Notes: a model not told the origin generated them from the letters alone. 64,000 bases of DNA from an uncultured Verrucomicrobiae bacterium (GCA_963764165.1 CAVXRD010000002.1:1920001-1984000), one strand, 5' to 3'. Counted from the first letter of the stretch, positions 37,146 to 58,172 are shown. Numbers and translations: made by a program.

Positions 37146-37343
37146 TTCAAGTTTTGCAAAGCCTTGCAAATACGAGGCTTATTGAACCGATGGACGGCCA
37201 CTGTCAGCGGAACTGTCAGTAAAGCGGCGATTGCCAAAACAATTCGCCACAACTGTTCGAGAACTCGCTGAAACTTTGCCACCACTGGCGTTCGAAAACG
37301 CCGCGGATGCAGGACTGGAATATCGAAAACAGGTAATCCAGTT

Positions 37344-38381
37344 ATGAAAACGAAATTCACAATGTTCCGGCGCGGGGAAATGTTCTACATGCAGGACAGC
37401 GCGACGGGGAGACAGACCAGCCTGCGCACCAAAGACGAAACCGAAGCCAAGCGGCTACTAAGCGCCCGCAATGAAGCGCAGCAGCAGCCGACACTTAACC
37501 TTCACCTTGCCCGCGCTTACCTGACGGCAAGCGATCCTGTCTTTGTGGATCGCAATTGGCAGACCGTCATGGAGCAATTGCAGAGCCGAGGCAAGGACAG
37601 CAGCAAAGAGCGTTACGCGAGCGTGTTCAAGTCGGCATCCTTCGACGCCTTGCGCCGAAAGAAATTGTTGGAAACCACCGCCGATGATTTCTTTGCCATA
37701 TTCAAAGACGGCAAAGTGTCCATCGTCGATTTTCTGAAACGGTTGCACAATTTTGCCTTAAGCATGGGCTGGATTGCGCTGCCGGTGGTTGCGCCTTACC
37801 TCTGGCCGAAATATCAGGCCAAAGACCGGCGCGGCATCACTTCGAGCGAACAGCAGAGCATCCTTGCCCACGAGAAGAAACTCGAATGGAAGCTGTTTTT
37901 GGAACTCCTTTGGGAAACTGGCGCGGCCCAAGGCGACGCCGTGAGCATGACCGCCGAGGATGTTGATTGGCAGAGCCGGACGATCACCTATTTTCGGAAA
38001 AAGACTGGCTCGCGGGCGCAGTTCACCATCAGCAACAGGCTGGAAATGGTTTTAAGCCAGTTGCCGCGAACCGGCCCGCTGTTTCCGAACTTATCCCAAT
38101 TCACGTCCAATGACCGGGCAACCCGCTTTCGCCGCCGTTGCCAGCGGGCGGGCGTGTCGGGCGTGACGCTGCATTGCTACCGTTACGCATGGGCAGAACG
38201 GGCGCGGGTTGTCGGGATGCCGGAACGGTTTGCCCAGGCGGCACTCGGTCACAACAGCAGCGCAATTCACCGCGCCTATGCGAAGAAAGCGCAAATCATC
38301 GTGCCATCGCTTGAGGAATACGAAAGGAAGTTTGTGGCAGCCAATGACAACATTTCGCCACAAAAGGCAGTTGCGGCGTGA
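37344..38381 (+). CDS. Tyrosine recombinase/integrase
   Basis: N-terminal arm-binding-like domain; RKKTG, LHCYRYAWA, LGHNS..IHRAY. Confidence 0.88.
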   Translation: MKTKFTMFRRGEMFYMQDSATGRQTSLRTKDETEAKRLLSARNEAQQQPTLNLHLARAYLTASDPVFVDRNWQTVMEQLQSRGKDSSKERYASVFKSASFDALRRKKLLETTADDFFAIFKDGKVSIVDFLKRLHNFALSMGWIALPVVAPYLWPKYQAKDRRGITSSEQQSILAHEKKLEWKLFLELLWETGAAQGDAVSMTAEDVDWQSRTITYFRKKTGSRAQFTISNRLEMVLSQLPRTGPLFPNLSQFTSNDRATRFRRRCQRAGVSGVTLHCYRYAWAERARVVGMPERFAQAALGHNSSAIHRAYAKKAQIIVPSLEEYERKFVAANDNISPQKAVAA

Positions 38382-38481
38382 AGCCGCCAAAATAATACGA
38401 AGCGGTTGAGTCTCAATAACTCAATCGCTTCTTCGCGGGAAACGCACGATTCGAAATGTCTTGATACCTCAGACTCTTTCA

Positions 38482-39417
38482 TCACGACAGAGCCTGCACG
38501 AATGTGTCCGTTCCCATGCCAGCGGGCATCCACACCGCGACGGCGGCAACGCGTTGCGCCAGTGCTCGGCTTTGTGGCGGGCGTTCTTGGAGATTCAAAA
38601 GATGAATCTGAATCGTAAATTCGTCCGCTACTTTAATGTCACGGTCACCCGGATAAACTTCCCCACGTCGAAAATTGCCGCGTTCGATACTTGCACCCTG
38701 AAATAGCTGTTCGATTTCTGAATCCTCGTCCACTGAACGAAGCCTTGGTACCTGCCCATTCCTGGGTGACCAAGACATCAAATAAACGCACGCGGTCGCG
38801 GAAGGATTCCGGTTTAGATATTCTTTTAATTGGAGCAGCAGCCCTATGAATTGCTGGCTGTCACCCGGACTGACGAATTGCAGTTGCGTGAGAAAAGAGT
38901 TGTATAATTCCTCCAAAGCAACGTGCGCATAGCCATGCTTTTGTGCCTCCGTCCGACTCGCATGACCGACGTCTGGCACAAAATTCACTGAGCCGATCAG
39001 CTGATTAACGATTGTCCTATTATGATCCAGAGATGCTTCTGTGAAATGAGGAACGCGTGGATAGAACCACTCTGACGAAAAATTCACATTTTGGTAATCG
39101 AGATCGAGAACACATTTTCGGGTCGGTTCAAATAATTGATCAAGAAAAAATGCTCTCCGCCATTCAGAAAGCGGTCGTCCAGCGACTGCATGCTGCCGGA
39201 GTTGCTCCCGTAAATGTTCTTCATGACTGACATAGGCTGTAAACGCGTCCTGCACTTCGCTTTCTAGGAAAACCCGGCACAGTCCCAGGTAGTTTCGTTT
39301 GTAACCGAGAAACCGCGCCCGCTGTTGTATCGTATCAGCATTGCCGACACCTTTTCCGCGCGGCATATAGGTGATCGTTAATCCTTCGACCGTAAATCCG
39401 CGATCCATAGCTTGGCC
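38482..39417 (-). pseudogene. Z1-domain (SF2-helicase-related) protein, 5'-truncated
   Basis: GQAMDRGFTVEGLTITYMPR...ADTIQQRARFLGYK; in-frame stop just upstream, N-terminal domains absent. Confidence 0.75.
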
Positions 39418-41210
39418 GCGAGTTTACTCAAACGGATTTTGAAAGTCTTTGTCGAAGCGCGGCTTCATCGAAGCATCGCGGAACGAGCATAGGTTATCGC
39501 GGCATAGGGTTTAAATCTGTCGTGGGATTCGCCAAAGTGATTCATATTTTCAGCGGCCAGCTTGAGACAACATTTTCTCGCGAACTGACGGCGCACGCCG
39601 TTCCCCAAGCAACTCGCGTCCCGCTGGTGAGAATCCCGCACCCCGTTGAACCGAGTTTGCGGTCAAAACTCACCGACAGCCTGGATGGACTTACGAGCGA
39701 TGGATTCAAGACTGTGTTTGTTTTTACAGACCTCGTTGCCAGTGGAATCGAAGCTGAGTTTGCTGCGTTTGATCCCACTTCTTTGTTGTTTCTTCGGAAC
39801 ATTCGGCAAGTGGAACTGAAATCTGACATCGAGGCCGTCATCACAATCCGACGCGAAACGGTGGATTCCCGCACACGCTCAATTCGTCTGGCTAGTTCTG
39901 AGGGGGTGAGTAAATGGACGGTGATCGAACGGGATGGTGTGGCTCTAGCGTTTATCCATGCTGAATCTGGAATCGCGCGTCTTGAGGAACGGCAGGCAAT
40001 AATTCACGCCTTTCTGCCCACGCTCGAAACAACAGGCTTTCCGTTCAAAGTGAATGGGGATATTTCAACCGACCCTTCCCGCACCCGGATTATTTTGGAT
40101 GAGCGCACTGCCTCAGGCATTAATTCCGCCGCCAAATTGATGGTTGATCTGATTGCCGAGTGTCTCAACGCTGCATCGCCGCAAGCAGACACGAAATTAC
40201 TTGCCGCCCTTATGCCGATTTCCGATCCGCGAATGGCTTCATTTCAAAGACGAAGTTTCAGGACCGAGCTTTATTCCGCGATCAAACGCGAAGCTAATGG
40301 ACGTTTTGGCGGTTTTCTGTGTCGTCCCCAATGGCTAAATGCAGTCGATTTCTCTAAGCTAACGGAAGCGTCGGGGGCTAAATCTGTCCCTCGCAATTTG
40401 GAAAGTGTCGAGGGATTATCTGGCTTTCTCAAATTTCTCGGAGCGGGAGAAGCAACACTGAAGGATTTCTCGCCCGCTTTGACCCAGGCCGCACCTTCTT
40501 TGGCGGGCGCCGCTGAAATCGTCACACACCTGACAAATCTTCATGCCACGAAACAAATTCAGGCTGATTCAATCAAATCGGATTGGAAGCTATGGCCGGT
40601 GGACGAAATGCCGCTTTCGTTGGATGAAGCCAAAAACACATCCAAACCACTTGCTCAAAGCTTTACGGATTTGATTGCCGAGAAGTCAGGAAGCAGGACT
40701 GAATTGCCGCGAATGGTTGAAAGCCTCACCGACGCGCCGACAGCAACCACGCTGATTCCGAGCAAGCCGTTAATACCATCTCAGTCAAATGATGTAGTTG
40801 CGTCTCAGAAATCGCCAAGTCAACAATTCAGCTTAAAACGCTGGCGGGGTGCAGAGCAGCAAGTGCTTGCAGTTCTGGTAGCATGGGGGTGGAAAGTCGA
40901 GGATGTAAGCCGACAAAATATCGGCTACGACATTGAAGGAAGCACGCCAGAAGATGAGCCGGTGTGCATCGAGGTCAAATCTATCGATTATCCCGGCCAA
41001 TCTTTTACGCTCACGAGCAATGAAGAGGCGGTTGCGAGAGAAAAGGGCGATTCTTATAGACTAGCATTGGTTCGGCAGACCAACACACACCTTGAGATTG
41101 CTTTCATCCGCGACCCGGCGCGTCAACTAAAGGTCACGCGGCAGTGCCGACAATGGGTTTGGGAATGTGCCACGTACGAATTCACGCCGGAAAGGTTTCG
41201 ACTTGAATAG
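39414..41210 (+). pseudogene. Sacsin-like GHKL ATPase + DUF3883 nuclease, 5'-truncated
   Basis: GREFTQTDFESLCRSAASSK...IGYRGIGFKSV lies in frame upstream of the called start; LLFLRNI; C-terminal VSRQNIGYDI...IEVKS...LTSNE. Confidence 0.75.
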
Positions 41211-41296
41211 TATGCTTCGGTTGATATGCGAATGCCCCACTCTAGGGTGCGTTTACACGGACGATGATACCATCGGAAATCGCCAAAACTGGAATT

Positions 41297-42211
41297 CTAA
41301 CTCTCGTTAGCCCGATTTGGTCTTTTTTGATTGGAATTCACGTACAAACTTTCCACATGTCTTAGGAATTCCTCTGTATTTTTAGCGTATCGTTTCTCCT
41401 TTTCACCTACGATCTTGCCGTTATCCGTGAAAGCCTCATAAACGCTGTTAGAAATGCAAGGATCATAATTATCGGTTGCGCCCTTTTTATGAAACCATTT
41501 AATCACCCGATCAAGCGCAGGCCGTGCCGTTTCCGATCCTATCGAGTCCGACTTTAATGGAACTCGGTATTCCACACACACTTGTTCCATAATATCTTTG
41601 AAAAAGGGTCCTCTTTTTTGCCAGATTTGTTCCAGCCTTTCCCATGCCGTACCAACTATGGCGCAACCGCACCATGCCGATTGCCTCTCTAATTCGTGGC
41701 ATTCAATGATTGGCTTTCCCACAAAACAATGTTGTTCAATAAAAAAATTACCCTCTGAAATTGCGCCACGCAACGGCAGGCCATAGTTGAACATTCGTTC
41801 CATCAGTGCAGCGCAGTCGGAAAAAAAATCGAACCAGTAGAGCGGTTCTGCTTCAGATGCTCTTTCCCCTTGTGGAATCTCATACCAAAGAAGAATTGAA
41901 TCGGCAAAAATGATTGAGCTTGTAGGTTTTTCACGCGGACCAGATTTCCGCACTGTTTCTTCTCTGATCTCATTTTGAATACTCAACAATCTCCCTTTTA
42001 TGATTTTGGCCGCCTCGCGAATGTTTTCATCGGAAGCAATCTTGCTGAATCCTAAAATGTCGAAATAGGCCACCAACCCCTGTTGGATTCCATCACAATT
42101 GCCAAGCAGCGATTCCTGCACAGTATTGAAACCGAATTCTACCCTCTTTCTTCCGCTACCGTTGCTGACAGCGCATGGTTGCGGCGACATCCTTAAATCT
42201 TCAAAGTTCAT
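41297..42211 (-). CDS. Class III nucleotide cyclase-like domain protein
   Basis: VAYFDILGFS, IFADSI, LPLRGAISEG, GKPIIECHELE; start uncertain. Confidence 0.6.
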   Translation of the reverse strand: MNFEDLRMSPQPCAVSNGSGRKRVEFGFNTVQESLLGNCDGIQQGLVAYFDILGFSKIASDENIREAAKIIKGRLLSIQNEIREETVRKSGPREKPTSSIIFADSILLWYEIPQGERASEAEPLYWFDFFSDCAALMERMFNYGLPLRGAISEGNFFIEQHCFVGKPIIECHELERQSAWCGCAIVGTAWERLEQIWQKRGPFFKDIMEQVCVEYRVPLKSDSIGSETARPALDRVIKWFHKKGATDNYDPCISNSVYEAFTDNGKIVGEKEKRYAKNTEEFLRHVESLYVNSNQKRPNRANES

Positions 42212-42516
42212 TGCAGCGGTCCAATGTAAGCGTGCGGAAGAAAAAGTCAATGAAGGTTGAAGTTTGTGCCAGGACGGTTTGTTGCGCTCATTCTGACCGC
42301 CTCCTTGAACGCATTCCCCGGTTACACCACGCGGCCTTTTGATGGCTTGGCTTAAAGTCCCAGCCGCGACACGCAAGCAGAAAATCGGTTCCCCCTGAAG
42401 GTTTCCCCCAATTTTCCGCCTTGCGCGTTGCGCTTCGCCCCGGCTCCGAGGGACTTTTTTCGCTCACCATCAGGCCGCGATGGGCGCAGCCCGACAAACT
42501 TAACAAGGAGACTACC

Positions 42517-42729
42517 ATGAGTGATTCCACCAACAACCAAACCGCCGCTTCCAAAACTCCCAGCCACATCGTTTACCATGTCCGAGACCGCGAAGGCGGC
42601 GAGGGCTTCTGGACTCGCATCGGTGCAGCTTGGCCGCACAACGACGGCAAAGACTTCAACATCCAGATCGAAACCGTGCCGCTGGACGGACGCATCACGC
42701 TCCGCGTCGCTGCCGAAAAAGCGAAGTAA
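42517..42729 (+). CDS. Small mobile-element protein (FWTRIGAAWPH; DUF736-like)
   Basis: Strong AAGGAG RBS; followed by a GC hairpin at 42740-42761. Confidence 0.7.
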   Translation: MSDSTNNQTAASKTPSHIVYHVRDREGGEGFWTRIGAAWPHNDGKDFNIQIETVPLDGRITLRVAAEKAK

Positions 42730-42784
42730 CGCATCAACCGGGCGGGCTTCACGGCCCGCCCTTCACCCCGAAAGGAACTTTCCC

Positions 42785-43039
42785 ATGCCAACATCACCAA
42801 CACGCGACTTGCCCACTCGCTTTGACGACTACGAAATCCACGGCGTCAAGGTATTCAAGGAATCCGGCAACAAATGGTGCGAACAAGTGCCCGACCACGA
42901 AGCGGATTTTTGGAGCCTCTACGGCCACATCCCCGGCCAAGGCTTAACCGTTCTCGGTGACTTCACGACTCGTGAGCACACGGACGAACTCTACGCCCGC
43001 ATCACTGGACGCAGCTATTCCGAAGGGAGCGACGTATGA
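42785..43039 (+). CDS. Hypothetical protein
   Basis: 84 aa from ATG 42785; ATGA coupling to the next ORF. Confidence 0.6.
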   Translation: MPTSPTRDLPTRFDDYEIHGVKVFKESGNKWCEQVPDHEADFWSLYGHIPGQGLTVLGDFTTREHTDELYARITGRSYSEGSDV

Positions 43040-43365
43040 CCCACACCAACCACACAATCAATCCGCTATATGCGGCCCGCATGGCACGAACCGCACACCA
43101 GCCGTCGGCGCGTCGCCAAAACGTGCCGGTCTATGCCCGGCTTCCGTTGGCACCTGTCAACGCCAGCCCTGTGCCGCATCTGACCAGCCTCTATCATTTC
43201 CACCGCGCCGGTGAATACGGCGACCGCAGTTACCCAGGCAACTGTGGCGGCAAGCTCACCGACATCATCCGGTTCAGTCACGGGGCATCCAGCAGCCGCA
43301 AGATTTACCGCAGCAGCTTCATCCCCGGTCTCCACGACGTGTGTATGGTCTTTGAAAAGGCGTAA
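43036..43365 (+). pseudogene. DNA methyltransferase-like gene with in-frame internal deletion
   Basis: N-terminal YGDRSYPGNCGG joined directly to C-terminal FIPGLHDVCMVFEK; no DPxxG or PPY motifs. Confidence 0.5.
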
Positions 43366-43377
43366 CGGCTCGGAGCC

Positions 43378-43590
43378 GTGGAAGTTGTGAGGGGTTCTCC
43401 AATCATACTCGGACCTGCCATAAACGCAGGTTCGGGAATTTATCCCGACACGATTTTCGATGCGACCAACAGTTATCAGATTCAGGCGTCCACCAATCTC
43501 ACAAACTATAGCAGCGGTGGCGCGCAGACCTTTATTGACCCAAGCGCAACCAACTTGAATCGTCGTTTCTACCGCACGGCAACCCCGTGA
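43378..43590 (+). pseudogene. Remnant of a secreted protein C-terminal domain
   Basis: YQIQASTNLTN...FIDPSATN..RRFYR resembles the C-terminus of the 61775-62359 fragment; no signal peptide. Confidence 0.5.
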
Positions 43591-43658
43591 AGGAATAGCA
43601 GAGTCGGCTCCGGCACTGAACCAGTCAACTGCTGCGGCAACAGCTGATTGTGGGCAGG

Positions 43659-44204
43659 CTACTCTGACTTTCGGTATGAATTGAATCCGATCAGAATACA
43701 AAAGCCTATCGAACCTATGTAGGCTAATGCATAGCGACAATCTACGACGAATTGCCATGCACCGATGTGAGTGGAAAGTCTCAATACGTGCCAAGTAGCA
43801 AGCGCAAACCAAAGCAAAACGAAGAAGAAAGAAATGCCAACCGCAACAGCCGAAACGGAAAATCGTCGAAGCGGAAAAATGAAAATCCTCCGCTTTTCAT
43901 CAACCTTGTGGTCCCCAAAAAAGCCTTTCTCAAGCACTTCCTCGTACTCCTGGACTTTTATTTCCCACGCCTCGTGCCACCATTTGGAGCCGATGTTCAG
44001 GAGCGTCCAACAGAATGAACTGACAAAACCAAAGCATGAAACCAAAAGCAAAATGCCATCGGTCCGATCCTTCACACCTACATAGCCAACAAGCGCCGCA
44101 GCACTGATAAGCCAAAAGTAGTTAAAACGCTTCCAGAATAGTTCGATCTCGAAGTTTCGCAGTTGAAGTGCCTTTTCAAGTTTGGCTAGTTTGTTTTCGT
44201 CCAC
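43659..44204 (-). CDS. Small multi-TM membrane protein (RipA-like oligomeric membrane protein)
   Basis: ALQLRNFEIELFWKRFNYF, GSKWWHEAWE, RFSVS; family recalled from memory. Confidence 0.55.
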   Translation of the reverse strand: MDENKLAKLEKALQLRNFEIELFWKRFNYFWLISAAALVGYVGVKDRTDGILLLVSCFGFVSSFCWTLLNIGSKWWHEAWEIKVQEYEEVLEKGFFGDHKVDEKRRIFIFPLRRFSVSAVAVGISFFFVLLWFALATWHVLRLSTHIGAWQFVVDCRYALAYIGSIGFCILIGFNSYRKSE

Positions 44205-44613
44205 GATTTTTTGATCCTCCAGAATGGTGTGGTTGTTAGAGGGCCAACTATCAATATAAAACTGCAGATTGGTGTTTTAGAAGGGTCCAATAATGACCCA
44301 CGAAGTAGTGCTCCGAGTTCCCATTAGGCTCGCCGAAAGCATCTTGCGCTGAGCACAGCCCGTAGTTGCTGCGCCTAGCCTAAGCGATTTTACCACTAGC
44401 CCAACCAGTTTCTGTTTCATTCAACCACTCATAATTTCGCCATCGGCACGCAAAATCAAGCCTTTAACGCGATTATCGTTCTCAACCAGGATGTACGCCC
44501 CTAGCTGACGCATCGTTTAGTCAAATTCCTCACCGGCATGATCTTCTTTCATGTTACCTCAGACGCCCAAAGCACCCCAAACCGAACAGCGTGATTTCCC
44601 CCCTTCTTCTGAC

Positions 44614-44850
44614 TCAAAGCCCACGGAGGAAATCGCTCACAGGAATCCCGACCTCTTTCGCAATCCGCATCAACGCTTCAATGGAGATGATTTTCTCTCC
44701 TCGCTCCACTTCTCCGATGTATTTCCAGTTGAGGTCAACTTTTTCCGCCAGCATTTCTTGGGTCAGCTTCGCTTCCTTCCGGTAGCGGCGAATCGCTGCA
44801 CCGATTATCTTCCGATGCGGTAAAATGGTCTTCGGTTTGGATTTGCCCAC
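44614..44850 (-). CDS. XRE family HTH regulator
   Basis: IRRYRKEAKLTQEMLAEKVDLNWKYIGEVERGEK. Confidence 0.88.
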   Translation of the reverse strand: MGKSKPKTILPHRKIIGAAIRRYRKEAKLTQEMLAEKVDLNWKYIGEVERGEKIISIEALMRIAKEVGIPVSDFLRGL

Positions 44851-44990
44851 GGTGAGCCGTAGTTAGGCAAAATCCCCTCCAAAGCGACACCAGCAACATG
44901 CTGGTATTTTGTTCTTGAATTCTTTGGCGCTATTTCACAAGATTCTCACGCCAGCGGCGCATAAACGCTGACGAATTACTCAAAAAAATT

Positions 44991-45236
44991 ATGAAAATTA
45001 TACGAAGACTTGGTCCCGACCCTCACGAGGGCGGAAAACAATCCGCCGGAATGCGTGGTTGCCCCGATATTCTCGAACTCGAATCCGGGGATTTTGCCAT
45101 CATCGGCGCGGACATCACTGATGCCGCCAGCGCCCACCTTCCTCCGTCCGTCGGCTGTGGCCCCGATGAGCGGATTGTCCGCATCCCAAGGGCGACGCTT
45201 GTGCTCGCCCGCTCCGACATCCCAGCGACCGTCTGA
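44991..45236 (+). CDS. Hypothetical protein (GCPDILELESGDFAIIG)
   Basis: 81-aa ORF divergent from the XRE gene. Confidence 0.65.
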   Translation: MKIIRRLGPDPHEGGKQSAGMRGCPDILELESGDFAIIGADITDAASAHLPPSVGCGPDERIVRIPRATLVLARSDIPATV

Positions 45237-45372
45237 GCACACCGCAGAACGTTCGCTACACCCCGTAATGCGGCTGAAAGCAGCGCGTTGCGGGGTTTGT
45301 CTTTTCCAGCACGCCACCCGGATTTCTACACCAACTTGGGCTAAACCATTTTTCCCGTCACACTGCGGCCCC

Positions 45373-45678
45373 ATGAAATACTCCCCCAAATACGGACGCT
45401 TTCGCGCTTTGCTGCGCAAAATCAGAGAGGAAGCCGGTTTGAGCCAAACCGCTCTGGCAGTGAAGCTTGGGAGACCGCAGACATTTGTCTCCAAATCCGA
45501 GCTTGGCGAACGCCGAGTCGATTTTACGGAAGCGGTCGAATTTTGCAAAGCGTGTCGCGTCACGGTGGGGCAGTTCGCAAAACAGCTGGAAGAAGCCACC
45601 GCGCATGATGAAACAACGAGCAGGCAAAAACGACGCAGTCCACGGAAGATGGACAGTGCAGGCCGATTGGCGGATTAA
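45373..45678 (+). CDS. XRE family HTH regulator
   Basis: LRKIREEAGLSQTALAVKLGRPQTFVSKSELGERRVD. Confidence 0.85.
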   Translation: MKYSPKYGRFRALLRKIREEAGLSQTALAVKLGRPQTFVSKSELGERRVDFTEAVEFCKACRVTVGQFAKQLEEATAHDETTSRQKRRSPRKMDSAGRLAD

Positions 45679-45709
45679 TACTGATTTTGGGAAAAGGGGA
45701 GCGGCGGTT

Positions 45710-46165
45710 ATGGGGTTAGTGGCTTCGTGGTTGTCAATCCATTGGTTTAATTTACTCCAAACCATCGGCATCGTCGGTGGACTGATTTACAACGGATATT
45801 CGCTGCGACTTAATGCACGCGTTCGCAGGGTCGAGACGTTGTTCAAAGTCACCGAGCAGCAACGTTCTATTTGGCTGAAACTGGTCGATCCGGCCCACCT
45901 GAAACGATTATTACATGAACACGTAAATCTGGACGAGCACCCGCTGACGAATGATGAGGAGTTGTTTGTTAACCTGCTGCTATTGCATTTTGAAGCGGTC
46001 TTGGAGGCCACGCGCTCCCGCGTGTTCAAAAAGCCTGCCGGGATGGACGTTGATGTTCGGGCATTTCTGTCGCTGCCGATTCCCAATGCGGCTTGGAACA
46101 AACTGAAAGAATATCGTGACGCGAGGACGATCCGATATGTGGAGGGATTCTTAAGGGTTCGTTGA
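45710..46165 (+). CDS. Membrane-anchored hypothetical protein (DUF6082/DUF4760-like)
   Basis: GGGAG RBS, N-terminal TM, C-terminal AAWNKLKEY...YVE. Confidence 0.55.
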   Translation: MGLVASWLSIHWFNLLQTIGIVGGLIYNGYSLRLNARVRRVETLFKVTEQQRSIWLKLVDPAHLKRLLHEHVNLDEHPLTNDEELFVNLLLLHFEAVLEATRSRVFKKPAGMDVDVRAFLSLPIPNAAWNKLKEYRDARTIRYVEGFLRVR

Positions 46166-46293
46166 TGGGACAGGAGTCGGGGCCGAATGTCATTATTGCA
46201 TTATAGCGGTCAATTAAATGCACCAATTTCCACTCCCCGGCAAAAAATTCGACTTGAACGGCGCTGCCTCGTCGAAATTAAAGTCGCCGGAAT

Positions 46294-46473
46294 TTAAAAT
46301 TGGTCGCGGAAGGAACCCTTTTCAAGGGTTTGTGCGATGACCCGCAGCATCCACTCAAGCAATTTATGGAGGGGAGGTTTCTCGTATTGCACGCACAGAA
46401 TGTCGTCGCCATCACGATATTCGGACCGCACCCACAATTCGTCTTCGATCATTTCCAAAGTTTGAATACTCAT
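46294..46473 (-). CDS. Possible 59-aa small protein divergent from the regulator
   Basis: Hand-translated MSIQTLEMIEDELWVRSEY...GSFRDQF*; below the ORF-track cutoff. Confidence 0.3.
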   Translation of the reverse strand: MSIQTLEMIEDELWVRSEYRDGDDILCVQYEKPPLHKLLEWMLRVIAQTLEKGSFRDQF

Positions 46474-46556
46474 AATGCTTCAGATTATCGTCGCTTCTTT
46501 TGATGCTGTCATCCGTTACGAGTCGGGAAACGATGCAACCAATACGAGGGCACCGC

Positions 46557-46671
46557 GTTACGAAACGTAACTGTCCCATCGTGAAAGTCGTTTAAACGAC
46601 GACTGAGCCAAGCGGAGCACCGCTTCCCTTTCGAGGGCATCCTGAAGAATTATCCATTTACGCAACGTAAC
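46557..46671. promoter_or_regulatory. Two palindromic TTACG-N3-CGTAA boxes (candidate operators)
   Basis: GTTACGAAACGTAAC at 46557-46571 and TTACGCAACGTAA at 46658-46670, cores exactly 100 bp apart. Confidence 0.55.
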
Positions 46672-46738
46672 TAATCGTAAAGCTGCGTAAATGTTGCGAT
46701 GCCCAGACATTCAGTCTATCGTCCTCCCGTCTGTGGCT

Positions 46739-48574
46739 ATGAGCAATCAAAAGCAAGACCCCAGCATCGGAATTCGATGGGACGAAGTCAAAAAGGACTT
46801 CGCTCAACTCCTCGGCGCACTCATGCACAAGCATATTCTGTCAACCGAGGAATTGGCGATCCGTCTTGGTTTAAGTGAATCCGTGATCAGGCAGCTTCAT
46901 AATGCCAATTATCCCTACCCCGGCCCTCTCCGTAAACTCGTCAAAATCCATTCGGCAAAACCCGAGGAGGCGCCGTTTTACTTCAAACAAGGAATGGATC
47001 ACGCATTCGCCCTTGAGGCGATTGATTTTTTAAAGCTTAAGGATTTTGTCGCCTACATTTTCGAAGGGAATAATGAACGTCTGAACATTCCGCTCCGACC
47101 AATTACGACGACAATCGTCTCTACGAGGGTAAGCACCTTACCCAGGATCGAGGCTGACCAGCCGAAGTTAACTCAACATTTCAGATCGCGCACAAACACC
47201 ACTCATCCAAAAATTGCCATCTGCATGGCCGACTTTGCACATGTAGGTTTGATCAAGGATGTAGAAGCTGAAAAAAGCCGAGCAGATGACATCCGGAATT
47301 GCCTATTCGAGGCACTCGACGCAGCATTACAAGAAGCTCTCGATGCTCTACACGATCGCTCCGAATTCGTGCTCCATGTAAAAGCATCAGCAACACCGAC
47401 TCTCAAGACCACGTCTGGAATGGGCGCAATGATCATCTGGGAATATCCAACTATTTCACGCCAAATCGAACTCGGTCTCGATCTGTTCTTGATTGATTAC
47501 GCTGCCTACGCCCAATCCTATCTCTATAAAAGTCTAAACGCATTCCACGGATATTTAGGTTTTCCGTGGCTTAAACAGTTGCATCCTAGAATCGTTCTTA
47601 CCAAGGGACCGGGACTAAAGCATTTAGGCTCAAATGGCTGGGTGTTGAGTTACGAAAGTCGCAAAATAGACGAAGCGAAACGGCTCCAAAAATTGGTTCA
47701 ACGACCTGGAGTAATTATTCAAGCCGAGTTTGCGCCCGATCTCTTAATGGAGCGTTTTTGCTTTGATCAAAACAGCAGTGTAACACAGATCAATTTCGCC
47801 AAGGATGTCAACAATTCTCTCGTCAACAATCCTCAAGTATGGATGAAATTGCAAGCGGACTCAAAAGACGGGGATGGAAATCGCATCAATCGAATAGGTT
47901 GGAGGCTCCCTCGGTCCAACTTGAAAGCTGCGCCGAACATTGGAGAAGTCAAAAAGTTATTCGAGTGCCCTTACGATTTAGAATCATTGGAATGGGAAAT
48001 GAAATTTTCGGAACATGACATTGTTTCCCTCTTTGAAGTGCGCGCTCGAATTGAGGCGCAGTTTGCGGGAGAAGCGGCTTCCGCTGCTGCGAATCCTTCA
48101 TCTTTCGCAAATGGGATGCTAAATGATATTAATGCATCTGTGACGAAGATGGAAGAGATGGCAAAGACTGGCTCCGAAGCCAAAGCCATTCGAGATAAAG
48201 CTTGGCGAGCACTTGGCGATCAATTTCATTGCGGAATTGCTAGACTTTCGGACCAGCATCAAGGGGAAAAAAGAGCTGATGTTGTAAATTTAGCTTATAT
48301 CTCTACGCAGCGTGTCTGCGGTGCTGTCGAAGATCGAATTCCTCCAGTGGAAGTAGCTCGCCAGCACCGGCGAATTTTTGAAGCGATAAGGCGAGGGAAA
48401 GCAAAGGAAGCAACATCCGAAATGGAGGAACATATCTCGGCTCATTACAGAATTGCCAGAGAAGAATTGTTCAAGCAATCTATAGATGTTGCGCCGGGCG
48501 CTGCCTGCTTTCTCCAGGACTGTCCTCTTTTAACGTCACTGACCGACCAAAATAACAACTTATGCAAAATCTAA
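46739..48574 (+). CDS. Multidomain regulator: HTH + degenerate class III cyclase-like domain + FCD domain
   Basis: LSTEELAIRLGLSESVIRQL; ICMADF...SGMGAMIIW...IDEAKRLQ; LFEVRARIE...DQFHCGIARLS...QHRRIFEAI..G....A...MEEHI. Confidence 0.65.
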   Translation: MSNQKQDPSIGIRWDEVKKDFAQLLGALMHKHILSTEELAIRLGLSESVIRQLHNANYPYPGPLRKLVKIHSAKPEEAPFYFKQGMDHAFALEAIDFLKLKDFVAYIFEGNNERLNIPLRPITTTIVSTRVSTLPRIEADQPKLTQHFRSRTNTTHPKIAICMADFAHVGLIKDVEAEKSRADDIRNCLFEALDAALQEALDALHDRSEFVLHVKASATPTLKTTSGMGAMIIWEYPTISRQIELGLDLFLIDYAAYAQSYLYKSLNAFHGYLGFPWLKQLHPRIVLTKGPGLKHLGSNGWVLSYESRKIDEAKRLQKLVQRPGVIIQAEFAPDLLMERFCFDQNSSVTQINFAKDVNNSLVNNPQVWMKLQADSKDGDGNRINRIGWRLPRSNLKAAPNIGEVKKLFECPYDLESLEWEMKFSEHDIVSLFEVRARIEAQFAGEAASAAANPSSFANGMLNDINASVTKMEEMAKTGSEAKAIRDKAWRALGDQFHCGIARLSDQHQGEKRADVVNLAYISTQRVCGAVEDRIPPVEVARQHRRIFEAIRRGKAKEATSEMEEHISAHYRIAREELFKQSIDVAPGAACFLQDCPLLTSLTDQNNNLCKI

Positions 48575-49404
48575 CTGCCACGCCAATAATTCCGAAAAAT
48601 AAAGATGACATTGCTTCAATCGCTTATCGAGGCGTTTCCCTTGTCCAAAATTCCACATTACGAGATGCGCTTTCCGATACTTATCGTTCGCCGAATGGCA
48701 AAAGGGCTTTGGCTGCGGCACATGACACCTTTGACAGGCTTATTTCATCCAACTGGAGCGAAGACACGCTTTGTCGGTTCTTGTCCGGTTGGCAGTCCAT
48801 GCACGGAACGGCGCTATTTGTTAGTGGATTGGTAATTCGCTTGCACAGGCAAGCGAGTGAAACCTCCGGAGAAGCTTCTGTTGCCATGTATCGAGCCGCT
48901 GGCCAAGTGGGAGAAATAATTCCTGAGGACACCGGCGTTGATGATGTGCCTCATAACGAACGCTTCGAAGTGTTTGCGAATCAAATAGTGGGCGGCGACC
49001 GCTGGAAATTAAGTCGTTACTCTATAGATGGTTGTAATACGTTCCGTCGTTACATCAAGCAGCAAAGACTTGCGGCATCAATCGAGGATGCAATTCTTAC
49101 TACGGCGGCGTCCGAAAACTGGAATACAGGAGAATATACGTTTCTTGATTCCGTGATCCCGGCTTGGATGGTTCGTGCTTTCGGCGTTACTAAAGAACTT
49201 GCAATCGAGAAGAGCGCTTACATTTCCGTCCACGCAGGCGAAACAGAGTTGGGGCATTTTCTCCATGCCCTGGAAGCTTGGGAACTATACTGTATCGGAT
49301 CGGGGACGCGCCCTGAGCCGGATCACGCCTATCGTGTATTTGATCGCTATCTTGGACGGTTAGCAGAAGCCTTCCTCGATTTGGGCCAAGTGTTTGATAA
49401 GTGA
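48562..49404 (+). CDS. Heme-oxygenase-like diiron oxidase (CADD/PqqC/TenA fold)
   Basis: EDTG....PH, SE, YISVHAGETELGH ligand pattern; helical; overlaps the regulator stop by 13 bp. Confidence 0.7.
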   Translation: MQNLTATPIIPKNKDDIASIAYRGVSLVQNSTLRDALSDTYRSPNGKRALAAAHDTFDRLISSNWSEDTLCRFLSGWQSMHGTALFVSGLVIRLHRQASETSGEASVAMYRAAGQVGEIIPEDTGVDDVPHNERFEVFANQIVGGDRWKLSRYSIDGCNTFRRYIKQQRLAASIEDAILTTAASENWNTGEYTFLDSVIPAWMVRAFGVTKELAIEKSAYISVHAGETELGHFLHALEAWELYCIGSGTRPEPDHAYRVFDRYLGRLAEAFLDLGQVFDK

Positions 49405-49406
49405 CC

Positions 49407-49760
49407 TTATCGTTGCCGGAGTTTCGACCTTGAAATTCCATCCAATGCCACAGAATCGATGAAAAGGTTTTCCTGTTGATAACCACTGGTTGCAGCGCCC
49501 AAGAGGGCATACATATCCCACGCGCTCAATTTTTCTGCATGAAATCCATCCATCCCTGCCGCGATAAAAAAGGAACGCAAATCCTCAGACCGAACGCATC
49601 CCTGCTCGTGCATATTGATCGATCCGAGAAATTTCTTAAGCCGTGCCGCGCCCTCGGGAGTAAGCGCAAAATACGGCTCGTGGCCTTTAGTTTCTTTGTA
49701 GTTCGCAGTATTTCTTTCCAGGTTCTCTTGCAGTTTAAGTCCATCGCTGACTTTGGTCAT
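49407..49760 (-). CDS. Hypothetical protein
   Basis: GGAGG RBS before ATG 49760; converges on the diiron enzyme gene. Confidence 0.6.
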   Translation of the reverse strand: MTKVSDGLKLQENLERNTANYKETKGHEPYFALTPEGAARLKKFLGSINMHEQGCVRSEDLRSFFIAAGMDGFHAEKLSAWDMYALLGAATSGYQQENLFIDSVALDGISRSKLRQR

Positions 49761-49944
49761 AACTCCTCCCAAATGAATGAGCGATTATACTCTACTTTAA
49801 TGGAATCAACAATAAGCTTTGCGATGGTAGGAAACTTACTCACACGACGCTGTCGTCGTCCGGTGGAGTGTTGGAGGGCCTCGCATAGTCACGACAACTT
49901 TATCAGCTATAATTCAGTATGTTAGCGCAATAACTGGAGTCGCA

Positions 49945-51441
49945 ATGAACAATACACTGTCAGCGAACACCGGAGTGGCCATTCTCATTATCTACGGGAT
50001 CGCCATGTTTTTCCTGTCGCTTTGGGTTGTTCGAGGGCGTAGGCAAACCAAGGCCGAATTCTTGCTTGCCAGTCGCAGTGTTGGAATTATTCCAGGAGCC
50101 ATGTCTATCGCAGCGTCATGGATATGGGCTCCTGCTTTGTTTGTATCTTCTTCAAAAACTTATCAGCAAGGATTGGCGGGCCTTTTTTGGTATCTCGCGC
50201 CCAACGTCGCAACCCTTATGATTTTTGGCCCTTTTGCAGCGAAATTAAGAACAAGGTTGCCTGACGGCTATACTCTGCCGCAGCATATGCGAAACGAATA
50301 CGGCAGCGGTGTCCATGTCCTCTATTTGATTCAATTCTTTGGTCTCCAGATTTGTTGCTTCGCGGTCGAGATTTTCGCAGGAGCTACTCTCATGCATTTA
50401 ATTACGGGCCTCAGCTTCGTCTCCGTGGCGCTGTCGTTGATCGGCATTGTGCTCGCATACGCCGTGATGGGGGGCTTGAGAGCGTCTGTGGCAACGGATT
50501 ACGTCCAAATGGCAGCGATGATTGTCATTTGCGGCCTTGTCGTCCCGTGGGCTGTAGCCAAGGCCGGGGGACTTTCGGTAATTTTAGCGGGTTTGGGTGG
50601 ATTGAATGGGGCATACGTTGATCCAAACAACCCAACCAGCCCCTCCTACTCGTATGCGAACCCGCTGAACCCTTGGGTCATTTGGTCGTTTGGAATATCC
50701 AACACTATCAGCTTATTTTCCGGTCCACTTGGTGATCAAATGCAATGGCAGAGGGCTTTCGCGTTGCGCTCTCAAGGAACAGTCAAGCGGACTTTTTTTC
50801 TTGCGGCTTTACTTTTTGGGTCGGTGCCTCTGGCTTTGAGCAACCTCGGATTCATAGCATCAAACAAGGAAATTTCATCCGGCTGGAATATTACTGATCC
50901 GCAAATGGTAGGCCCCATCACTGTCGCTCACCTTTTGCCACACATGATGATAGTGATTTATGTAATCATGATATTATCAGGCCTTTGTGCGACACTGGAT
51001 TCAGTTTTATGTGCTATAGCGTCCCTTACCACGACAGACGTTTTTGGATATCAGAGTGAAAAAGCAGAGAAAGATCAGCAAGCTGTATTTATTTCACGTT
51101 GGGCAATGATTGTCGGTGCATTCTTGGGTTTTATTGTCGCGTATGTATGGCACGCTCTGCACCTCACAATCCTTGATTTGTTTCTTTTTTATGGAACGCT
51201 GAGAGCATCAACAATGATTCCAACAGTTGTTACCCTTCTTTGGCCCGGTTTGAGACCCGGAGTGATTTTTGCGACGATTCTCGCTTCCCTCCTGTTTGGT
51301 GCGCCTCTTATGGCGGCGGCTCGCCTTTCAAATGATGAACATGTCAAAGCAATTCTTAGTGTTGCGGGAAGCTTAGCCGTGGTAACCATCGGGATTGTCG
51401 GCTGCTGGATTGCTAAACGCTTCAGACAGACACAGTTGTAA
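49945..51441 (+). CDS. Sodium:solute symporter family (DUR3/PutP-like)
   Basis: EFLLASRSVG, SIAASWIWAPAL, GGLRASVATDYVQ, DQMQWQRAFA, STLDS-like ATLDS. Confidence 0.88.
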   Translation: MNNTLSANTGVAILIIYGIAMFFLSLWVVRGRRQTKAEFLLASRSVGIIPGAMSIAASWIWAPALFVSSSKTYQQGLAGLFWYLAPNVATLMIFGPFAAKLRTRLPDGYTLPQHMRNEYGSGVHVLYLIQFFGLQICCFAVEIFAGATLMHLITGLSFVSVALSLIGIVLAYAVMGGLRASVATDYVQMAAMIVICGLVVPWAVAKAGGLSVILAGLGGLNGAYVDPNNPTSPSYSYANPLNPWVIWSFGISNTISLFSGPLGDQMQWQRAFALRSQGTVKRTFFLAALLFGSVPLALSNLGFIASNKEISSGWNITDPQMVGPITVAHLLPHMMIVIYVIMILSGLCATLDSVLCAIASLTTTDVFGYQSEKAEKDQQAVFISRWAMIVGAFLGFIVAYVWHALHLTILDLFLFYGTLRASTMIPTVVTLLWPGLRPGVIFATILASLLFGAPLMAAARLSNDEHVKAILSVAGSLAVVTIGIVGCWIAKRFRQTQL

Positions 51442-51500
51442 TCCAAACACACTGTTATACCAACAATTGTTAAGGCTAGGGGGAAATTACTAACATACTT

Positions 51501-51755
51501 ATGAAAACGTGTTCTAGTTGTGGTGGTTGTGGTCGCATGGACTGTCCTCGAAGTAGCTTTGGAACAGTCACATGCACCTGCTGCGGCGGAGACGGTAAAG
51601 TTTTTGAAGGAACACGGGAGGTATTTTCCCTACTTTGCTTTTTTGGAGTGGGAAAATACGAAGTCACTTGTGCTAATTGTAAGCATGTGCATTCATACTA
51701 TTATGGCCCCATTAAACGAGCCACGTGCGAGAATTGTGGGTGCAACTTTGTTTGA
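51501..51755 (+). CDS. Small Cys-rich zinc-finger protein
   Basis: CSSCGGCG, CTCCGGDG (DnaJ-like CxxCxGxG) plus CANC and CENC. Confidence 0.55.
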   Translation: MKTCSSCGGCGRMDCPRSSFGTVTCTCCGGDGKVFEGTREVFSLLCFFGVGKYEVTCANCKHVHSYYYGPIKRATCENCGCNFV

Positions 51756-52265
51756 TCGATGCTCAAACCAGTGCCGCAATGTAGTTATTAGTGGGATTTG
51801 CTTTTGAACTAGATCGCATGTGTGTCCACTTCTTGATGCAGGAGTCCCTCATGTCCCGAGCGCGGCGGCTTTGCTTCGCCTTCGCACCCCGTACCCCGCC
51901 GCTGCGCTACGCAAAACCGCCGCACTCAGTCCGCCCCGGATTCGAGCTTGTCCCTCAGACGGAAAAACGCTCTGTTCCGCTTACTCGCCTGCCCCCCTTT
52001 CCCACGGGCGACCGCTCCACTGCGCGCCTTTCCGTCTGAGCGACAAAGTTTCGCGGCCCCCGCGCCCCATTTGGTAGTCATTGGGTTGTTTCCAAATCCA
52101 TTTTTTTGCGCGGTTCTCCTGCCTATCGCCCTCACCAGCCTGCTTTTCGAGCCGGGGGCCGGGCGCGGTTCCTCCTGAAGGCGACCTCCGCTGGCCGCCC
52201 GTCTCGGCAGGCTTTCTCGGTTGAAGGGCGATAGGCCGAGAACGCACAGAGCAAAAAAAAAGATT

Positions 52266-52652
52266 ATGAAAACAAAACAAAATCCAAAATCAGTTTCAGA
52301 GCTCCAGAACCGGACCGCACAGGGCAGTGAAGGCAAAGCGGAATTGCCGAAGATCGATTTGAACAAGCGCAACCGCAACCGGGTTTTGCCGATGGAATCC
52401 TTGCTTGAGTTGATTCGGAAGGAAGGACCCGCGTTTTGGGATGCCGTGGAAGTCGTCGGCAAATGGGTTTGGTTGCAGTTGGACGGCAAGCAGCCGAAGG
52501 AGATTACCGCCGTAATTTCGCAACTTGGCTTTCATTGGAACAACCGCCGCCAAGTCTGGCAGCACCCATGCGGACAGGTGACTGTCAGGGCCGACTTTGA
52601 CCCCCGCCGCAAATACCGCTCCTACTTCCCATCAGACCAGAAACCGGCCTAA
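52266..52652 (+). CDS. Hypothetical mobile-element protein
   Basis: EVVGKWVW...LGFHWNNRRQVWQHPCG; TAATG coupling to the RadC-like gene. Confidence 0.65.
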   Translation: MKTKQNPKSVSELQNRTAQGSEGKAELPKIDLNKRNRNRVLPMESLLELIRKEGPAFWDAVEVVGKWVWLQLDGKQPKEITAVISQLGFHWNNRRQVWQHPCGQVTVRADFDPRRKYRSYFPSDQKPA

Positions 52653-53179
52653 TGGAGATTTTACCCATGAACGAACAAATACCATTGTTTCCGGGTTTCG
52701 ACATCGTGAAACCGTTCAAGTTTCCGGCGCAGCCTTATGAATACAAGGTGACCGCCTTGCGGGAGTGTCCGACACCGGAACACATGCAGGAATGCGACAC
52801 ACCGGGCAAGGTTGCGGATTACTGGCGCAGGCACGTTCCCGCCCATCCGTATTTTAGCCCGGAATGCGAATGTTTCGTTGTCCTGATTCTCAACACCCGC
52901 CGCAGGGTGAAAGGTCATTACTTGGTCAGTGTCGGCACGATGGACTGTATTCTTGTCCACCCTCGGGAGGTTTTCAGGCTCGCGATTATGACCGCCGCAT
53001 CGGGCATCGTGTTGACCCACAACCACCCCAGCGGGGAGGCGTCCCCATCCGAAGCTGACATTAAGGTGACGCGTGACCTGATACGCGCCGGGCAACTTCT
53101 GAAAATCGAAGTCATTGACCACGTTGTGATCGGCAACCCCGGCCATGTTTCGCTCCATGAGCTTGGATACTTGTCTTGA
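52652..53179 (+). CDS. RadC-like JAB domain protein (no HhH domain)
   Basis: E.FVVL.LN, VHPREVF, HNHPSG...PSEAD...DHVVIG. Confidence 0.9.
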   Translation: MEILPMNEQIPLFPGFDIVKPFKFPAQPYEYKVTALRECPTPEHMQECDTPGKVADYWRRHVPAHPYFSPECECFVVLILNTRRRVKGHYLVSVGTMDCILVHPREVFRLAIMTAASGIVLTHNHPSGEASPSEADIKVTRDLIRAGQLLKIEVIDHVVIGNPGHVSLHELGYLS

Positions 53180-53183
53180 ACCC

Positions 53184-53377
53184 ATGAAACGCAACAAACG
53201 CCGCTTGCCTATCCCGCAGCACGAATTTGGTTTGTGCCCGACACGTTCACCCTGATTCAGGAAACCGGACTGGACGGAGATCGTTTGGCCCACGAACGCG
53301 CCGAGGCAGACCGCGCCCGGACTTTGGCCGAGAAAGCGCAAGCGGCTTTGTTCAACCCACCACCACGCAAAAACTGA
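53184..53377 (+). pseudogene. Small protein apparently split by a 1-bp deletion
   Basis: MKRNKRRLPIPQHEFG continues in another frame as VPDTFTLIQETGLDGDRLAHERAEAD...*, ending 1 bp before the next ATG. Confidence 0.4.
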
Positions 53378-53378
53378 T

Positions 53379-53780
53379 ATGAACACCGACGAAAACGAAT
53401 CGCCCTTTGGGCCAATTATTTACAGCTACACACGCGCCCAAGCCCTTGCCGATGGCGTGCAGGTTGACGTAACCACCACAGCGCAGGAAGCCGGAATTCG
53501 TTTTCCTGTATTCCTGACCCGCACTGTCTTTGACGCATACGTGACCGTTCCGCCCGGCATAGACGGGCAGGATGAAGCCGGGAGACTTTGGGACGTGCTT
53601 ACCCTCTTACGGCACGCCATCCGCGCCGCACGGCCCGGCCAAGACCGCTTGCCGTTTGCGCTCTACGTGCGCAACGACAACCGCCGCGCAAAACTCGTGA
53701 AGTTGATCGCCGCTTGCGGCGCAAAAGACATCGACGATCCGCAGCCGGCCATTACGGTAATGATGCGGGGGGAGGATTGA
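53379..53780 (+). CDS. DUF6573-like mobile-element protein
   Basis: IYSYTRAQALADGVQVDV...GQDEAGRLWDVL...PAITVM..ED. Confidence 0.75.
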   Translation: MNTDENESPFGPIIYSYTRAQALADGVQVDVTTTAQEAGIRFPVFLTRTVFDAYVTVPPGIDGQDEAGRLWDVLTLLRHAIRAARPGQDRLPFALYVRNDNRRAKLVKLIAACGAKDIDDPQPAITVMMRGED

Positions 53781-53799
53781 TCCACCCGAAAACACACGC

Positions 53800-53832
53800 C
53801 CGGCTAGACTGAAAACAGTTCAGCCGGTTTTT
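53800..53832 (+). terminator. Putative intrinsic terminator
   Basis: ccggct...agccgg stem followed by TTTTT. Confidence 0.5.
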
Positions 53833-54174
53833 AAGTTTGGGGACTCGCGCCGTCCCCAAACCCCCACCGCCAGAGGCATGGCCTCTGGACTCCATCACTC
53901 GCTTGCGCTGGCTTTTCCGCTTTCGCGCCCTTTCCGACATCGCGGAAAGGATATTGTTTGAAATCACCGGCACCGCTGAAATTCTGGCGGGTCAAACGAG
54001 CGTGCCACTGTCAGTAAAACCTCCAGTGAAAGCACCTGAAAGTTAGCAAAAATAGTGGCGAGTTAGGGCGAATTTTCATTGATTTTCAGAGGGAAAAGCT
54101 GTATTTTCCTCGTGTCTGAATTCGATAGACAGACTGTGTCAATCTGTGGCCAGAATCAGATGCGGCCCTGGCAA

Positions 54175-56811: not shown

Positions 56812-58168
<1,357 letters not shown>

Positions 58169-58172
<4 letters not shown>

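Follow-up and report, generated by a model that had tools for sequence, protein, structure and literature searches.

The window, by which we mean the whole 64,000-nucleotide stretch of DNA from an uncultured Verrucomicrobiae bacterium analysed here, carries an open reading frame at 46739..48574 (+ strand) that encodes a protein of 611 residues in which a probable helix-turn-helix (HTH), a dead class III nucleotide cyclase and an FCD domain are fused. An alternative ATG start at 46691 (+) would give a protein of 627 residues, and there is no obvious ribosome-binding site at either 46739 or 46691. A 627-residue database copy of the protein, which differs by a single residue and comes from a second contig of 7,144 bp, shows that the frame and the stop codon of the gene are not an artefact of one assembly. 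The next gene, at 48562..49404 (+), begins 13 nt inside the end of the fusion gene and encodes a heme-oxygenase-like helical protein of 280 residues, a predicted diiron oxidase. The possibility that the two genes are the parts of a single frameshifted fusion was rejected, as the linker would be longer than that of the fused relatives and the second contig has an identical C-terminus.

The pair is carried by a 16.8-kb integrative element (37197..54030) inserted between purS and uvrB. The element has an integrase gene (37344-38381), imperfect terminal repeats (37197-37223 and 54004-54030) and low-GC3 cargo, with a GC3 of 0.46, while the core genes on either side have values of 0.64-0.76. The region 46739-51441 is not covered by any of the matches listed for 40 relatives. 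The right 2.3 kb of the element has a 90% identical copy elsewhere in the genome, and an integrative-element family with GCCACTGTCAG / ACTGTCAGTAAA end motifs is present in several copies (G000:C1:61925-64234, C1:584706, C2:471133 and C2:3564366). A sodium:solute symporter gene at 49945..51441 (+), 540 bp downstream of the predicted oxidase, is a possible target gene; no symporter homologue lies beside the pair in the related loci L003-L009.

The element also contains several other genes. A 121-residue ORF (49407-49772, - strand) is convergent with the oxidase gene and has neither a Pfam or NCBIfam match nor a homologue in L003-L009. A cyclase-like ORF at 41297-42208 (-) is unrelated to the fusion gene: both metal-Asp motifs can be recognized by eye (YFDILGF and FADS), and the ORF matches phrog_23933 with an E-value of 1e-9 and does not match the profile of the fusion family. 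There are four Pfam cyclase matches in the genome. The gene of an 8xMP octameric membrane protein (43659-44204, -; Pfam PF24838, E 1e-26) lies 1.4 kb upstream of this ORF in the same orientation, and the two could constitute a separate cyclase-plus-pore pair. Region 38482-41210 contains a Z1-domain ORF, in which the match covers the first 75 residues only, and a NO-VEIN C-terminal/TmtA-like ORF, both of which look like truncated defence genes. The only Rfam elements found in the island are a tRNA-Ser and a match overlapping it. At 56812-58172, a tRNA-Ser is followed by a second tyrosine integrase that marks another island.

Domains of the fusion protein

A preliminary description of this DNA had proposed that the protein consists of an HTH, a dead cyclase and an FCD domain. 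This layout is borne out by Pfam, an AlphaFold model and fold comparison, with the HTH being its weak part. The model was built from a 17-row alignment, and its pLDDT per 10 residues is 61-96, mostly above 85, over residues 151-350. Comparison of the model with known structures shows that the middle region has a class III cyclase fold and the C-terminal region has an FCD fold. A PDB sequence search with the fusion protein as a query gave no match. The protein is about 31% identical to its nearest relative and its end branch is long (1.3-2.1 changes per column).

The cyclase fold comprises residues 153-388 (47195..47902, +). Its model superimposes onto CyaC with a TM-score of 0.74 over the target, a Z-score of 14.8 and an rmsd of 3.1 Å for 189 aligned residues, and onto the uridylate cyclases 8jsz and 7r65 with Z-scores of 13-14. 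The Atlas score of this region to cyclase-like clusters is 0.93-0.94. The class III landmarks named in the preliminary description are all found in the sequence, and the Met at the second catalytic Asp is confirmed by alignment with relatives to be M228. The six catalytic positions, which comprise two metal-binding Asp residues, a base-specifying Lys/Asp pair and an Asn/Arg transition-state pair, are D-K-D-D-N-R in the intact relatives and D165, T224, M228, S304, D311 and R315 in the window protein. D165 and R315 are retained and the other four of the six positions are lost, with T224 in place of K, M228 and S304 each in place of D, and D311 in place of N. A Lys is found immediately next to the base-specifying position, at residue 223, and AHV stands where the intact relatives have a GFT loop.

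The FCD domain occupies residues 431-579 (48029..48475, +). Pfam PF07729 matches residues 431-567 with an E-value of 5e-10, which is above the cut-off, and the corresponding part of the model (about residues 409-579) gives Z-scores of 15-17 against FCD structures. R435, E439, H497, H543 and H565 are all kept. The His residues pointed out earlier are thus present, but the Asp of the DQFH motif (D494) is not the canonical metal ligand and is not conserved in the family. The canonical ligand position is four residues before H497, and it is occupied by G493; this position is Gly in 18 of the 20 family rows and a gap in the other two. An extra His, at position 569, is found in 14 of the 20 rows. 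According to PMC7797058, the zinc ligands of Atu1419 are Asn137, His141, His192 and His214. As the usual fourth metal ligand is replaced by G493, binding of zinc by the window FCD domain is not certain.

No GntR winged helix (PF00392) was detected in the window protein at an E-value of 0.1. Such a helix would directly precede the FCD domain, and weak XRE-type matches instead stand about 350 residues upstream. They define a probable XRE/Cro-type HTH at residues 14-76 (46778..46966, +). Pfam HTH_26/HTH_31 matches this region with an E-value of about 0.03, below the cut-off, the best Atlas score is 0.87 to HTH_3 clusters, and the PDB match to MOR has an E-value of 0.35. The model contains helices at residues 14-30, 36-43 and 47-55 with a pLDDT of 52-63. 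The XRE-like HTH of the preliminary description therefore stands in that all the weak matches agree, but each is below its curated threshold.

A palindrome scan identified two copies of TTACG-N3-CGTAA upstream of the fusion gene, at 46558..46570 and 46658..46670, 100 bp apart, and half-sites are located at 46516, 46676 and 46686. In the whole genome of 7.0 Mb there are three full sites (about three are expected), two of which lie in the 573 bp upstream of the fusion gene. The palindrome was picked after inspection, and the controls therefore counted any doubled palindrome with 5-bp arms. These were found in 9 of 3,000 shuffles, in 23 of 1,024 GC-matched genome tiles (2%, own tile included) and in 116 of 4,000 random genome tiles. 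Such frequencies give moderate support to the two palindromes as a candidate operator of the window regulator. Promoter and terminator scans found no more than is expected by chance. The palindromes and the architecture fit the earlier suggestion that the protein is a regulator, whereas the nucleotide signal that was part of that suggestion finds no support.

The predicted oxidase partner and the cyclase-FCD family

The preliminary description had left out the partner gene and the swapping of N-terminal modules across the family. The model of the predicted oxidase has a pLDDT of 96 and contains the heme-oxygenase-like helical bundle of the HDO superfamily. Its best Foldseek matches are a TenA homologue, CADD, UndA and BesC (E-values of 5e-4 to 4e-3), with TM-scores of 0.5-0.6 and a maximum of 0.61 to UndA. 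According to PMC13108848, HDO enzymes have a 3His/3carboxylate set on three core helices. Six Glu/His candidates of the window protein (E122, H131, E185, H224, E229 and H232) are located on or beside three long helices of the model in the expected order and are kept in 63-65 of the 65 rows of the oxidase alignment. On this structural basis the partner gene is predicted to encode a diiron oxidase with a 3His/3Glu ligand set. Another strictly kept set of residues, H81, D123, N188, E191 and Y220, belongs to the pocket. We found 56 relatives of this protein. It matches nothing at the sequence level in Pfam, NCBIfam, PADLOC or the PDB, a PDB search with the oxidase alignment included, and the accessible part of PMC7848743 contains nothing decisive about it. 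Beyond the seed genomes, it was not found among the sampled 400 genomes of its own phylum and 300 genomes of its own order, as well as among 400 genomes each from the phyla of genomes G442 and G440.

A HMMER search of 1.84 billion representatives with residues 145-404 of the window protein resulted in 19 hits, namely the protein itself and 18 others. Sixteen of the 18 relatives have an FCD match at an E-value of 0.05 or lower, and the other two are short; a Guanylate_cyc match is found in seven, mostly below the cut-off. Removal of the fragment P0068, addition of P0078, P0088 and L004, which were reached via the partner gene, and inclusion of the window protein resulted in a family set of 21 members. 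A word-seeded homologue search found only the protein itself among 7,994 scored candidates, and the same type of search with the family alignment found itself and one more among 7,998. Viral contigs and phage records contained no relatives, and a plasmid search with an intact member returned generic cyclases only, none of the hit locations reaching 80% coverage of the query.

The architecture, which the preliminary description had not recognized, is therefore represented by 21 proteins of the type [X]-cyclase-FCD found here, the window protein included. Three members have received automatic names at JGI, such as 'class 3 adenylate cyclase/DNA-binding GntR family transcriptional regulator'; the core of two domains is thereby known from automated annotation and not from study. 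No published description of the architecture was found in searches of the openly readable literature. The cyclase-FCD family with its swappable N-terminal outputs and predicted oxidase partner is real and rare, and it is apparently undescribed.

No N-terminal module is found in eight of the 21 members. The others carry a TIR module (P0065, P0066 and P0071), a CAP12/Pycsar TIR (L004), a module with the PADLOC match PDC-S60 that we call DUF4062-like from its motif (P0074 and P0077), a PNP module (P0088), membrane helices (P0070, P0072 and P0078), an HTH-like module (the window protein and, by eye, P0067) or a partial module (P0062). No alignment was obtained between the N-terminus of the window protein and that of P0067, so that a relationship of their HTH-like modules is not established. 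Defence profiles are matched by N-terminal modules of the family, namely ThsB-like TIR, PycTIR/CBASS effector, PN-superfamily effector and PDC-S60, and Glu or Asp motifs, presumably catalytic, are retained in the TIR, DUF4062-like and PNP modules. PADLOC, whose models include components of Pycsar, CBASS, Thoeris and Detocs, gave no matches for the window fusion protein and oxidase, and it matches the relatives by their N-terminal modules only. The modules differ even between close relatives. P0071 (TIR) and P0072 (two TM helices) are 86% identical over the core module but not related in the part that precedes it. P0065 (TIR) and P0088 (PNP) are 53% identical, and P0077 (DUF4062-like) and L004 (CAP12-TIR) are sisters in the tree.

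The state of the cyclase follows that of the N-terminus. All six catalytic positions are intact in all eight members lacking a module, whereas the second metal Asp is lost in 11 of the 13 members that have one; of the two exceptions, P0067 is fully intact and P0062 keeps the second Asp and lacks the Asn. The Fisher p-value of 2e-4 for this association ignores kinship and overstates it because the rows are related. Truncated gene calls could account for the members that lack a module, and P0060 starts at the first strand of the fold; two short members are located on long contigs (109 kb and 8.7 Mb). In a tree calculated without the catalytic columns, the catalytic state changes at least three times, with the second metal Asp lost in three or more lineages, and placing all dead members in one clade is rejected with a p-AU of 0.024 (LG+G4, with long branches present). 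The intact P0060 is the sister of the window protein, with a support of only 93/80. The second-Asp position of the 11 dead members is occupied by seven different residues (M, P, N, G, S, A and H), and some of them lack the first Asp too. Such varied replacements look like relaxed constraint and not like a retained pocket. Nine relatives keep the D-K-D-D-N-R set, a motif that predicts adenylyl specificity.

The predicted oxidase is fused to the FCD domain in P0060, P0065, P0088 and P0042 and is adjacent to the cyclase-FCD gene in the window, L003, L004 and L007. Among the cyclase-FCD members with a known context, it is fused (P0060, P0065 and P0088) or adjacent (the window, L003, L004 and L007) in all seven, three of which (L004, L007/P0078 and P0088) were reached only via the oxidase. 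The link is thus direct in seven of the 21 members; in four more it is indirect, an oxidase hit being found on a contig of identical length. The oxidase and cyclase-FCD trees share three groupings (window with P0060; P0065 with P0088; P0074 with P0077 and L004). Nine oxidase loci were fetched, of which three contain a cyclase-FCD gene, four contain an FCD protein free of a cyclase (L006 and L008, which represent one identical element, L009 and L011) and two have no FCD neighbour (L005 and L012). The presence of the oxidase beside FCD proteins that lack a cyclase indicates that the FCD domain, not the cyclase, is its steady partner.

Some of these loci have distinct surroundings. In the Azospirillum sp. 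B510 plasmid (L011:5391-10103), two methyltransferases, a divergent annotated GntR, the oxidase and an MFS transporter form a small metabolic cassette. In the Nostoc sp. UHCC 0926 plasmid (L012:7929-15995), a distant oxidase homologue with 26% identity and the ligands kept is found at the head of an NRPS cluster, which is a possible route to the substrate of the oxidase family. In L006:420-10831, the FCD and oxidase pair is carried by a conjugative element that also encodes a TrwC relaxase, a ParE toxin-antitoxin, ArdC and an integrase. The neighbours in L003 are of a toxin-antitoxin type, and no defence-island neighbours were found among the ORFs scanned in L007 and L009.

Proposed mechanism and alternatives

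The domains, the residue losses, the gene pairing, the exchange of modules, the palindromes and the mobile island are observations, whereas the identity and source of the ligand, the signal relay, DNA binding, the order of events and a role in defence are all parts of the mechanism that we infer. The explanation that we prefer, and to which we give about an even chance, is that the oxidase makes or alters a metabolite, the FCD domain senses it, the dead cyclase serves as a dimer relay and the output is, in this copy, transcription. The neighbouring predicted diiron oxidase would act on a small molecule, a small acid, which the FCD domain of the window protein would bind at its predicted His-ligated zinc site. 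The class III cyclase fold is dimeric in its family, and the stripped fold would pass the ligand signal through the dimer to the N-terminal module. The probable HTH would then act on its own operon by binding to the upstream palindromes, and perhaps also on the symporter gene. The window protein would thus be one output variant of a two-gene sensing cassette composed of a cyclase-FCD protein and an oxidase. Such a cassette may have originated when, in an ordinary GntR/FCD and oxidase pair, the winged helix was replaced by an adenylyl cyclase, with ligand in and cAMP out. The N-terminal outputs (TIR, CAP12-TIR, DUF4062-like, PNP, membrane helices and HTH) would have been added afterwards, followed by repeated losses of catalysis in the cyclase, which would have been retained as a scaffold.

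Judging from the set of outputs, a role in defence or conflict is the likeliest purpose of the cyclase-FCD family, although the window's own variant carries no toxic module. A more specific possibility, which we advance tentatively, is a defensive one-component system in which immunity is signalled by an oxidised metabolite messenger and not by a nucleotide, with the window protein as its transcription-factor version. The diiron enzyme would make the metabolite, or infection would stop its production, the metal-binding FCD domain would read it, and the dead cyclase dimer would activate the fused TIR, PNP, DUF4062-like or membrane effector.

Several other explanations deserve to be weighed against the preferred one. 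The preliminary description had the cyclase reading a nucleotide signal, and the protein would be a two-input regulator if its dead cyclase still bound ATP or a cyclic nucleotide as a second sensor beside the FCD domain. The fold is intact in the model, D165 and R315 are kept, a second cyclase-like ORF is present in the island, the genome has its four Pfam cyclase matches, and in mammalian and soluble cyclases degenerate class III sites are known to function as allosteric pockets. Nevertheless, we consider this improbable: the window protein retains neither the Lys/Asp pair that reads the base nor the Asn, the second metal Asp or the GFT loop, and the 11 dead members show no common replacement, with their seven different residues at the second Asp and, sometimes, the loss of the first. 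We give a similarly small chance to a guard that acts at the protein level, in which the oxidase-like protein would bind the cyclase-FCD protein and keep its N-terminal module off like an antitoxin, with no diffusible metabolite involved. The repeated fusion of the two proteins (P0060, P0065, P0088 and P0042), the overlapping stop and start and the matching tree groupings would agree with such an arrangement. However, the strictly kept residues of the oxidase are the metal ligands and the pocket set, and they are kept also in the distant homologues from the NRPS cluster and beside the MFS transporter, which points to catalysis on a small molecule.

It is also conceivable, though unlikely, that the locus is an ordinary metabolic or detoxifying regulon, in which the oxidase makes or degrades a compound, the symporter moves it, the fusion protein is an odd FadR-type regulator and the TIR and PNP modules are incidental. 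The Azospirillum cassette of a GntR, the oxidase, an MFS transporter and methyltransferases has this appearance, and in the window an SSS transporter lies 540 bp downstream and the pair has no PADLOC match. On the other hand, the symporter is missing from L003-L009, and in seven members the N-terminal part is a TIR, CAP12-TIR, DUF4062-like or PNP module whose presumably catalytic motifs are in place, something that a catabolic regulator would not need. This reading can fit the window copy while failing for the family. Finally, the gene might be a P0060-like cyclase copy that drifts on a mobile element as decaying cargo devoid of function. Its long end branch and the truncated appearance of the neighbouring Z1 and TmtA-like genes are compatible with decay, but a frame of 611 codons has stayed open at about 31% identity to the nearest relative, the FCD Arg, Glu and His residues are kept, the partner gene is intact and paired palindromes stand upstream. 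We regard decay as very improbable.

If the preferred mechanism is right, the cassette links an unassigned family of predicted diiron oxidases to FCD ligand sensing in a testable form. FCD-gated adenylyl cyclase activity is predicted for the intact members, which would represent a ready reporter for the oxidase product. The family, of which only 21 members were found, appears to record, several times, the death of an enzyme after a new output was fused in front of it. Should the TIR and PNP versions defend against phage, their trigger would be a non-nucleotide metabolite, which lies outside the chemistry of CBASS, Pycsar and Thoeris.

Relation to known systems

The window protein would work in the manner of a FadR-type one-component regulator. 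It resembles the FadR/VanR-type GntR regulators with a metal-binding FCD domain (Atu1419, DhdR, DgoR and PmiR) in its FCD fold (Z-scores of 14-17), Arg/Glu pair and His triad, as well as in the placement of its gene beside that of the enzyme that it would regulate. The spacing of the His residues is 46 and 22 residues in the window FCD domain versus 51 and 22 in Atu1419 (PMC7797058). Unlike these regulators, it lacks the winged helix and has a cyclase fold between the DNA-binding module and the FCD domain, a Gly at the Asp/Asn ligand position, a fourth His (569) that is common in the family and a variable output module. With the class III adenylyl cyclases CyaC, CyaB and Rv1264 it shares the fold, but the window copy lacks four of the six catalytic positions, and its sensor is C-terminal and is an FCD domain.

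Pycsar and CBASS combine a cyclase with a TIR or membrane effector. The class III fold and the CAP12/PycTIR-type TIR of L004 are reminiscent of these systems. In the cyclase-FCD family, however, cyclase and effector form one protein, the members of this type have a dead cyclase, and an FCD domain and an oxidase are added. The window pair does not consist of an active cyclase and a separately encoded effector that senses nucleotides; its cyclase is degenerate, and the gene beside it encodes an oxidase-like fold. No CNBD, STING or SAVED domain was matched in the family members scanned. The partner protein is similar to the HDO oxidases UndA, CADD, BesC and AetD in its fold and candidate 3His/3carboxylate set (PMC13108848). 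It differs from known HDO oxidases in being part of a two-gene cassette with a sensor and not of a biosynthetic cluster, the distant Nostoc homologue excepted.

Two further systems are comparable at the level of module exchange. In Detocs (bioRxiv 10.1101/2023.01.24.525353), the DNA-binding output of a signal-transduction layout is replaced by swappable defence effectors, including PNP or membrane domains. The cyclase-FCD family likewise has swappable outputs that include PNP and membrane modules, but it has neither a histidine kinase nor a receiver and pairs a one-component ligand sensor with a metabolic oxidase, and its role in defence is predicted only. Bacterial TRADD-N proteins carry hypervariable N-terminal TIR, PNPase, HTH and nucleotide cyclase modules among close relatives, according to PMC8195603, whose main text does not mention FCD, GntR or heme oxygenase. 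The N-terminal module set of the cyclase-FCD family is like theirs, whereas the constant core, a cyclase-FCD protein and an oxidase, is different. The cyclase-FCD and oxidase cassette is a putative ligand-sensing one-component system that shares parts with each of these systems and is a member of none of them.
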